Shown piece by piece: positions 43,315-43,379 of a DNA stretch of 64,000 nt; position 1 is the first letter of the stretch, and the number at the start of each line of letters is the position of its first letter. The notes beneath the pieces were generated by a model. That model was not told the origin of the DNA. It did no database searches and was given only the letters and a program-made list of their open reading frames with translations. Position numbers and translations under genes: made by a program. The stretch comes from Nitrospirota bacterium. GTDB taxonomy: Bacteria; Nitrospirota; UBA9217. The stretch lies in assembly GCA_963796285.1 (NCBI GenBank), contig CAWCKW010000012.1:1664001-1728000 (forward strand). The letters run 5' to 3'.

Positions 43315-43379
43315 ATTTTATTCTGCTCGCTTCCGGCAGGACATTGTTGTCTAAAAGCTTCACGAGCTTTCTCAAAGTT
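43315..43379 (-). ncRNA. Candidate two-hairpin cis-regulatory leader RNA (copy 2, nifH leader)
   Basis: Matches 29471-29534; both copies end 21 nt before the ATG. Confidence 0.55.

Follow-up and report, generated by a model that had tools for sequence, protein, structure and literature searches.

A conserved leader hairpin of sigma54-type transcripts, found before outer-membrane protein genes and nifH in one family of uncultivated Nitrospirota

Why do the transcripts of a nitrogenase gene and of an outer-membrane porin begin with nearly the same leader? This question is raised by a 64,000-nucleotide stretch of a Nitrospirota genome (contig CAWCKW010000012.1, positions 1,664,001 to 1,728,000; the whole stretch is called the window below), in which nifH and a porin-amtB-glnK operon each follow a sigma54-type promoter and are preceded by a leader with two hairpins, P1 and P2. 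To our knowledge, nothing is known experimentally about nitrogen regulation in anaerobic nif-bearing Nitrospirota, organisms that exist only as metagenome-assembled genomes (MAGs). Here, we analyzed the two leaders together with their relatives in the family, in the phylum and in metagenomes. The leader is likely structured at the level of RNA, and we tentatively read its near-constant part, P1, as a recognition hairpin for a trans-acting factor that would control the fate of the mRNA.

Direct reading showed that both leaders lie on the minus strand, each 3′ of GG at -24 and GC at -12 in the standard spacing that marks a sigma54 (RpoN) promoter, and start sites were predicted from these elements. 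The original prediction, made from the sequence alone, had aligned the two leaders as a two-hairpin motif that starts about 20 nucleotides (nt) after the predicted sigma54 start and ends 21 nt before the ATG. Both statements held: P1, P2 and an A-rich tail are common to the two leaders, the motif begins ~20 nt past the start site predicted from the -12 element in both, and exactly 21 nt separate its end from the ATG in each. The stems it had described as conserved are both present, but P2 of nifH is weaker than described, and the flanks AAUG and AUAAAAU are conserved within the genus but not in the wider family. A further hairpin, P0, is located at the predicted 5′ end of the porin leader, and the nifH leader lacks it. 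The features of the two leaders are as follows (R1 and R2 are the covariance models described below).

43412-43426, minus strand: sigma54-type -24/-12 promoter element of nifH (TGGCAC-N5-TTGC), by direct reading; one of 37 matches in the genome, kept in 29 of 30 nifH upstream regions of the family.
43353-43371, minus strand: nifH leader hairpin P1 (GAAAGCU-CGUGA-AGCUUUU; 7 pairs, loop CGUGA), in the minimum-free-energy and centroid folds; 44.8 bits with R1 and 24.3 bits with R2.
43323-43339, minus strand: nifH leader hairpin P2 (CUGC/GCAG, 4 pairs plus an inner C-G beside a bulged A), by folding, -6.1 kcal/mol.
43315-43322, minus strand: A-rich tail 3′ of nifH P2, by direct reading; common to the porin leaders of the genus type.
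43291-43306, minus strand: nifH Shine-Dalgarno sequence (43301-43306) and ATG (43291-43293), by direct reading.
29566-29580, minus strand: sigma54-type -24/-12 promoter element of the porin-amtB-glnK operon (TGGCAT-N5-TTGC), by direct reading; the same element stands before orthologous leaders.
29532-29546, minus strand: 5′-proximal hairpin P0 (GUUGU/ACAAC), in the porin leader only, by folding; present in many, not all, orthologues.
29509-29527, minus strand: porin leader hairpin P1 (GAAAGCU-UCGGA-GGCUUUC; stem of 7 base pairs, loop UCGGA), the near-invariant core of the motif, by folding and alignments.
29478-29498, minus strand: porin leader hairpin P2 (CCUGC/GCAGG), by folding; it covaries across genera.
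29471-29477, minus strand: A-rich tail 3′ of porin P2, by direct reading.
29447-29463, minus strand: porin Shine-Dalgarno sequence (29454-29463) and ATG (29447-29449), by direct reading.

Could two leaders resemble each other this closely by chance? A strict pattern of P2 plus tail matched the 3.58-Mb genome twice, both times at these leaders, and only 2 of the 37 sigma54-like promoter matches in the genome, those of nifH and the porin, are followed by a P1-type hairpin. R2, a covariance model built from seven porin leaders in register (from other species and this one) with nifH left out, matched the nifH leader at 24.3 bits (E = 5e-5, unfiltered 64-kb window). These pattern counts, the promoter scan and the R2 match show that the likeness is not due to chance. 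No third sense copy was found by R2 in the unfiltered window, and no complementary RNA gene was found in the genome beyond the two copies themselves (pattern search of the genome, R2 on the window); a third match to a regular expression, at C12:1227840, is unrelated sequence. MAFFT failed to put the 3′ arms of P2 in register, and Infernal was used to align the remaining leaders to R2. Two further sigma54-type promoters were seen in the window, both on the minus strand, at ~14548 before a signal-peptide open reading frame (ORF) with a short leader and at ~8865 before another amtB. The hairpin motif is missing behind both, which indicates that the element is not general to nitrogen-regulated sigma54 transcripts here.

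We also compared the leaders with known RNA families, a check that the original prediction had proposed, and no known family matched either leader. The sole match of the whole window to Rfam 15 at gathering level is a SECIS_3 element elsewhere in the window. At E values up to 10, the best scores of the two leaders were 11.5-17.4 bits against cut-offs of 39-60, with T-box, glnA RNA, Downstream-peptide, guanidine and ykkC among the families. No description of the motif was found in the literature at the level of titles and abstract openings plus the main text of PMC2995071. The element thus matches no described RNA family.

How widely does it occur? R1, a covariance model of the P0 flank and P1 built from 21 sequences (match threshold E <= 0.01), matched 36 of 64 genomes of the same family with 38 matches, one per genome and two (porin and nifH) in the window's own genome (G000, 96% complete) and in G005. 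The search of related genomes that the original prediction had called for therefore yielded further copies, and these lie between a sigma54-type promoter and a gene start, the same sigma54-type element preceding the orthologous leaders in the family. In a sample of the phylum, R1 matched 14 of 27 family genomes plus G000 and none of 123 genomes from 21 other families. The exact consensus 19-mer of P1 was found in 86 metagenome stretches, of which 33 are leaders, 48 are tRNA-Arg(CCG) in antisense and 5 are other sequence. Among the 33 leaders, 32 stand behind a sigma54-type promoter, 29 are distinct, and all precede signal-peptide genes. A degenerate P1 pattern run over genome contigs was too loose (120 stretches, 80 of them examined); promoter and complete leader came together in 2 of the 80, both in Nitrospirota MAGs. 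Taken together, these searches place the element in one family of uncultivated Nitrospirota, to which it is restricted.

The genes behind the element are of several kinds. Among 30 family loci that were fetched, 18 have the element before a porin of the window's BBP2 type, 8 before an unrelated signal-peptide protein and one (G001) before nifH; 3 have no ORF call, and one of these is truncated where the contig stops. The second protein type (e.g. L200 1605-2372; L193, L201) has ~256 amino acids (aa), carries a signal peptide and is conserved over an N-terminal segment, and no Pfam family matched it. An amtB gene lies within 1.5 kb in 12 of 30 porin loci, and other porin loci (L032, L037, L038, L047, L048, L043) have instead an APC-type amino-acid permease with a long extracytoplasmic insert, which indicates that the leader marks more than one kind of nitrogen-uptake operon. 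Clustering of neighbouring genes over family and metagenome loci gave porin A in 34 loci and a type-B outer-membrane protein in 15; AmtB (25) and P-II (9) recur downstream, and ThiF-like (18), homocitrate synthase (8) and NifB-like (6) genes recur upstream. From this neighbour pattern, the motif-led operon is commonly the tail of a nif island. Porin paralogues that lie behind a transporter gene and have no promoter of their own lack the element. The element is thus usually located beside nif clusters, where it precedes an outer-membrane protein gene at the head of an amtB-glnK or amino-acid-permease operon, and the leader of the outer-membrane protein operon is probably also its original place.

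Is the conserved part of the leader an RNA structure? The leader is ~110 nt long and consists of an optional P0, P1, a variable linker, P2 and a purine-rich spacer with the ribosome-binding site. The consensus of P1 is GAAAGCU-CCGGA-GGCUUUC (19 nt), in which the innermost stem pair is a conserved U.G wobble and the loop has 5 nt, or 7 with this wobble open. P1 has hardly changed in about 10 genera, whereas P0, the linker and P2 have drifted; in most copies P2 reads CCUGC.../...GCAGG. RNAalifold on 21 leaders predicted P1 alone, with a compensatory change in 4 of the 7 pairs of that alignment. Pairing was counted at 13 pairs in 29 sequences aligned by R2, with 500 shuffles and with the 3′ partners slid by 1-3 columns as a control. 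Removed before this count were the duplicates L139/L199, L073 and L034, then L003 and L233, and matches with E > 0.006 (L002, which is the nifH leader of G005, L207 and antisense matches); L199 and L139 were also removed because their antisense match passed the threshold.

The results show that 96.5% of cells pair in the whole structure, compared to 33-69% in the slid controls, and that none of the 500 shuffles reaches the observed value on 4 of 5 measures. In P1, 99% of cells pair. All 12 one-sided changes in P1 stay paired (A-U to G.U in 8, U.G to U-A in 3 and G-C to G.U in 1), and one double change, C-G to U-A, is found in G024. Changes on both sides occur in 5 of the 13 pairs, counted in related sequences whose alignment was fitted to the model, and most covariation sits in P2, where 4 of 6 pairs have changed on both sides. 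The 45 nt 3′ of P1 fold better than shuffles (mean z = -1.79; z < -1 in 38 of 53 distinct leaders), and the 40 nt 5′ of P1, the P0 region, give a weak fold signal (mean z = -0.66; z < -1 in 16 of 53). Taken together, these results make RNA-level structure of the leader likely.

The same conservation could in principle act as double-stranded DNA, P1 being a palindromic operator past the sigma54 promoter at which a dimeric repressor would block the open complex or elongation. P1 is a near-palindrome (GAAAGC...GCTTTC around TCCGGA) whose sequence is conserved far more than its pairing varies, and its position, ~+25 to +50 relative to the predicted start, would suit a roadblock. However, the two halves are asymmetric, being parts of a 19-nt element with a conserved U.G wobble as its innermost pair, and the one-sided changes in P1 keep the RNA paired in 12 of 12 cases. 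In G014, G018 and G060, P1 is a 21-nt stem. We interpret this as the insertion of a complementary pair, by which GAAAG and CUUUC have moved from 9 to 11 nt apart; this widening by 2 nt fits a hairpin and argues against a DNA operator with two fixed half-sites. The loop variants of nifH break the inner DNA palindrome and keep the P1 stem, the promoter lies 23 to 46 nt away depending on the copy, and the structured P2 lies on the transcript side. In addition, NrpR, a known repressor of nif and glnA of the euryarchaeal type whose operators lie downstream of the promoter, was not found in this genome (PF01995 not found in G000, positive in two methanogen controls). We consider a DNA operator improbable. 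As a separate DNA-level candidate, a secondary sigma70 promoter across the porin P1 was rejected; it consists of one 9-of-12 match, compared to a chance expectation of 0.7, and is not conserved in orthologues.

If the element acts in the RNA, which of the known modes of control fits it? On the sense strand of either leader, no G+C-rich hairpin precedes a U run, and the tract after P2 is A-rich, so that an intrinsic terminator or attenuator was rejected; the single terminator-like site (43321-43341) is on the antisense strand and is within chance expectation (0.5). A switch that masks the Shine-Dalgarno sequence was rejected as well, as the 5′ arm of P2 pairs with it at a mean of -5.5 kcal/mol and shuffled arms pair at -5.4 (31 leaders). 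For a CsrA site, the domain PF02599 was not found in G000 and was positive in the E. coli, B. subtilis and T. maritima controls, and the nifH loops have no GGA. For processive antitermination of the LoaP/RfaH kind, a second, specialised NusG-family gene was found at G000:C12:327461-327745; it adjoins a polysaccharide chain-length/tyrosine-kinase-like ORF in a polysaccharide-export context, 1.3 Mb from nif, and we set this mode aside.

Leaders that are targets of ANTAR proteins (GnfR, NasR, AmiR or EutV type) carry two tandem hairpins with six-base loops, the second of which competes with an intrinsic terminator. Such an antitermination leader, like that of GnfK/GnfR in Geobacter sulfurreducens, would act on the same kind of target set, with RpoN promoters before nifH and before an operon that contains amtB, glnK and the gene of an unknown secreted protein, as described in the main text of PMC2995071. 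The leaders studied here have no hexaloops and no sense-strand terminator. The ANTAR domain (PF03861) was not found in G000, and it is present in 63 of 151 genomes of the phylum but in only 1 of 15 motif-bearing genomes of the same sample (G054). The Geobacter box CAGGCAANGGCGCC gave 45 matches in the window at <= 3 mismatches, and none of these is inside 29447-29590 or 43291-43430. ANTAR antitermination is thus already contradicted, and we regard it as extremely unlikely. The original prediction had stated that the motif resembles neither the glutamine riboswitch nor ANTAR hairpins, which agrees with the Rfam result and with the ANTAR result in G000.

One of its own options, a ligand-sensing RNA, fared less well and is unlikely. 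A small-molecule riboswitch for a nitrogen metabolite (glutamine, 2-oxoglutarate or ammonium) would suit a conserved leader in nitrogen-regulated operons for which no protein partner is known, and since no existing class matched it would be a new class. However, the linker between P1 and P2 is unconserved, with lengths of 0 to 26 nt, P2 can be missing, and what is conserved belongs to a simple stem-loop and not to junctions. Nor did we find an expression platform, there being no terminator and no specific pairing between the P2 5′ arm and the Shine-Dalgarno sequence in the leaders. A riboswitch is therefore highly improbable in our view. From these comparisons, we infer that the element is neither a terminator or antiterminator nor a compact ligand-binding aptamer.

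The 48 antisense matches among the 86 metagenome stretches raise another possibility. P1 might be a minimal stand-alone sensor of tRNA-Arg, in which an arginine codon (CGN) in the loop would kiss the anticodon loop and report tRNA charging or abundance, with no T-box machinery. The 19-mer is the exact reverse complement of the tRNA-Arg(CCG) anticodon arm of other organisms (ARAGORN called this tRNA in one of the stretches, L252 2973-3045). Likewise, the anticodon loop of the genome's own tRNA-Arg(CCG) has its exact reverse complement in the central 7 bases of the porin P1 in the window, and a CGN triplet is present in every loop variant (CGG in porins, CGU in the window's own nifH and CGA in the nifH of G005). 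Against this, a covariation test failed, the tRNA-Arg(CCG) loop being CUCCGAA in 42 of 42 family genomes with a call. Most copies carry C at P1 position 8, where pairing with tRNA position 37 needs U. The triplet stands in three different registers relative to the stem, any loop with CG contains an arginine codon by definition, and of the seven complementary bases, two are taken up by pairs of the P1 stem. There is also no Rfam T-box match and no terminator or antiterminator. If true, such sensing would make the expression of the operons for nitrogen scavenging and nitrogenase depend on the state of tRNA-Arg, whose amino acid is the richest in nitrogen, but we judge it very unlikely.

Could the leader simply protect the message? 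In this alternative, it would constitutively stabilise the mRNA and favour its translation, free of regulatory input, and stacked hairpins would shield the very abundant mRNA of an outer-membrane protein (and of nifH) from decay that depends on the 5′ end. The genes served, porins and nifH, are likely highly expressed, and P0 is at the predicted 5′ end. The region of P2, whose loops have 3 to 11 nt, folds better than shuffles, and shuffling the upstream leader slightly lowers the predicted openness of the ribosome-binding site (from 0.59 to 0.54; 39 of 52 leaders). The lack of a terminator, of an alternative fold masking the Shine-Dalgarno sequence and of a regulator in our searches also agrees with it. 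What this explanation leaves unaccounted for is P1 itself, a 19-nt sequence that is near-constant, loop and wobble included, in about 10 genera in which P0, the linker and P2 have diverged, and that is found before two unrelated outer-membrane protein families and nifH. Moreover, the other sigma54 transcripts of the window, including that of the second amtB, do without P1. A pure stabiliser is therefore unlikely, though less so than an operator, a tRNA sensor or a riboswitch.

These same features of P1 carry the reading that we prefer. A P1 constant in about 10 genera, its reuse before unrelated outer-membrane protein genes and nifH, its place on sigma54 nitrogen transcripts and the free variation of the hairpins that flank it suggest a recognition site, and the reuse before unrelated genes points to a shared trans factor. 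We propose, at a little less than an even chance, that a trans-acting factor recognises the P1 hairpin and thereby controls the fate of the mRNA. Sigma54-dependent transcription would yield a leader carrying P1, which would be bound sequence-specifically by the factor, most likely a protein, and the bound factor would set the stability or translation of the mRNA after transcription. P2 and P0 may have a structural role, shielding the mRNA and leaving the ribosome-binding site free of pairing. Hfq genes are encoded in the genome, so that factors of the Hfq type are available.

Several observations weigh against a recognition hairpin. The support for P1 comes from few independent events, as 2 of its 7 pairs are invariant and only one has a double change, and all of the pairing counts are affected by the relatedness of the sequences and by the fitting of the alignment to the model. 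P2 is gapped in 10-12 of the 29 rows of the covariance-model alignment, and it is missing or weak in G066, in the nifH leaders of G001 and G005 and in L284. The single-sequence folds of the window's two leaders are not unusually stable (z = -1.06 and -0.36), and many assembly indels mean that single bases of these copies may be wrong. No regulator gene recurs beside the element in the neighbour clustering, and no trans factor was found. In addition, the nifH leader of G003 has lost the 3′ arm of P1, and those of G005 and G001 have no convincing P2; the nifH copies are thus decaying in the genus, which weakens the case for a function at nifH.

How, then, did the element come to stand before nifH? 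NifH was found in 36 of 64 family genomes, and 30 upstream regions were fetched. In 24 of these, the nifH leader is short (~30-45 nt after the -12 element) and has no hairpin motif; one has no recognisable promoter, and 5 have long leaders (G000, G005, G003, G024, G042). P1 of this type precedes nifH only in the window's genus (G000, G005, G001). The linker, P2 and tail of the nifH copy are genus-specific and are common to the genus's porin leaders, which points to recent recruitment or duplication of a porin leader within the genus, and this is what the nifH copy looks like from its sequence. The original prediction had held that the motif links nitrogenase with ammonium uptake. Its porin-amtB side stands, as the element does belong to that leader, but its nifH side applies only in the window's genus. 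A simple duplication of a leader, which the original prediction had named among the outcomes that would refute it, seems in part to describe the nifH copy.

A stronger form of this is that the nifH copy is a neutral, eroding remnant of a porin leader duplicated in the ancestor of the genus, which would be compatible with any reading of the porin copy; nitrogenase and ammonium uptake would then have no functional connection through it. The short, motif-free nifH leaders elsewhere in the family, the genus-specific parts in common with porin leaders, and the lost arm in G003 and unconvincing P2 in G005 and G001 all agree with it. However, three of the genus's four nifH leaders (G000, G005, G001) have preserved P1 despite differing loops, the long leader has been retained rather than deleted, and the window's copy keeps both P1 and P2. 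We regard a neutral remnant as possible but doubtful.

Two side observations concern nifH. In the window, NifH shares 93-97% identity with its counterparts in other genera of the family and only 85% with those of the congeners G003 and G005, yet the window's nifH promoter and leader resemble those of G003 and G005. This pattern suggests either that nifH has been exchanged or that the family has two lineages of it. The second observation is a perfect 14-bp palindrome at 43452-43465, ~58 nt 5′ of the point where nifH transcription is predicted to begin. G005 and G003 have retained it, and we list it as a candidate site for a sigma54 enhancer-binding activator.

In the window, the nif cluster is on the minus strand and contains nifH, nifD, nifK, nifE, nifN, nifX, two NifI-type P-II genes, nifB, a ThiF-family gene and homocitrate synthase, and the BBP2/OmpL-type porin gene, amtB and a P-II gene come directly behind it. 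The genes led by the two leaders are as follows.

28294-29449, minus strand: BBP2/OmpL-type beta-barrel porin gene, with frame breaks near 28487-28539 (Pfam PF07642, E = 1.1e-58).
26639-28283, minus strand: amtB (ammonium transporter), in several frames (Pfam PF00909, E = 4.2e-35 on the fragment 27111-27746).
26258-26597, minus strand: glnK-type P-II gene, in two frames (Pfam PF00543, E = 3.2e-16).
42544-43293, minus strand: nifH, whose open frame stops early at 249 aa (open reading frame compared with relatives).

The open frame of nifH is thus 249 aa long here, compared to 286-362 aa in relatives. Split frames or early stops affect the porin, amtB, glnK, nifB, nifN and the 3′ end of nifH (26258-29449, 32173-33061, 35548-36785, 42544-43293), and these reflect either assembly indel errors or decay of the nif/amt island. 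Two P-II genes inside the nif cluster, at 34124-34540 and 34657-34974 (minus strand), are of the NifI1/NifI2 kind, which is a post-translational switch-off system typical of anaerobic diazotrophs. The SECIS_3 element lies at 21463-21521 (minus strand) with 83.9 bits, compared to a gathering score of 63, and adjoins a molybdopterin-oxidoreductase ORF (19625-20908), which probably encodes a selenoprotein of the formate-dehydrogenase type.

The element may be of use in several ways. The 19-nt P1 could serve as a small RNA bait for the factor behind the putative post-transcriptional layer, and the motif is a marker of a nitrogen-scavenging operon beside nif islands in metagenomes. If the leader is only a stabiliser, it would still be a new RNA family for databases, of modest biological interest.

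Which known systems does it resemble? Like the glutamine riboswitch (glnA RNA) and the Downstream-peptide motif, it would be a cis-acting RNA in the leaders of nitrogen-metabolism genes; unlike them, it has no multi-stem junction and a variable linker, and cmscan matched neither family on the two leaders at E values up to 10. With T-box leaders it has in common a leader hairpin loop with a codon complementary to a tRNA anticodon loop, but it has no Stem I platform, antiterminator, terminator, Rfam T-box match or tRNA covariation, and the codon register shifts. Hairpins in the 5′ untranslated region (UTR) of the ompA type stabilise the mRNA of abundant outer-membrane proteins and leave the ribosome-binding site open. 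The likeness to these stabilisers is a long leader of tandem hairpins before an outer-membrane protein gene, with an open ribosome-binding site; the difference is that here the sequence of P1 is conserved across genera, reused before unrelated genes and tied to sigma54 nitrogen promoters. The small RNAs NfiS and NfiR are reported to act on nifK and nifD mRNA in Pseudomonas stutzeri (PMC6606865). They resemble the system proposed here in adding post-transcriptional control to sigma54/NifA transcription of nitrogenase genes, but they are trans-encoded small RNAs that pair in coding regions, whereas here a cis hairpin is located in the 5′ UTR.

The closest system in logic is GnfK/GnfR of Geobacter sulfurreducens, in which an ANTAR protein acts on the leaders of nifH, nifEN-nifX and an operon comprising a hypothetical protein together with glnK and amtB, with the conserved box CAGGCAANGGCGCC upstream of a terminator hairpin (Ueki and Lovley 2010, PMC2995071). 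The comparison was made with the main text of that paper, and its leader alignments (Supplementary Tables S2 and S4, Figure S4) could show more or less resemblance. In both cases, a leader is shared by a subset of RpoN-dependent nitrogen genes that includes nifH and an operon of an unknown protein, glnK and amtB, and in both a second layer would follow initiation on top of an enhancer-binding activator, as proposed here and as described in the main text of PMC2995071. The Nitrospirota element differs in having no ANTAR protein, no hairpin with a T run and no CAGGCAANGGCGCC box, and in belonging to a different phylum; outside one genus, it marks the porin/amtB leader and not nifH. If confirmed, this family would be a second lineage besides Geobacter with a common leader on nifH and on an operon of an unknown secreted protein, amtB and glnK, reached without ANTAR proteins or terminators, that is, a convergent logic built from different parts.

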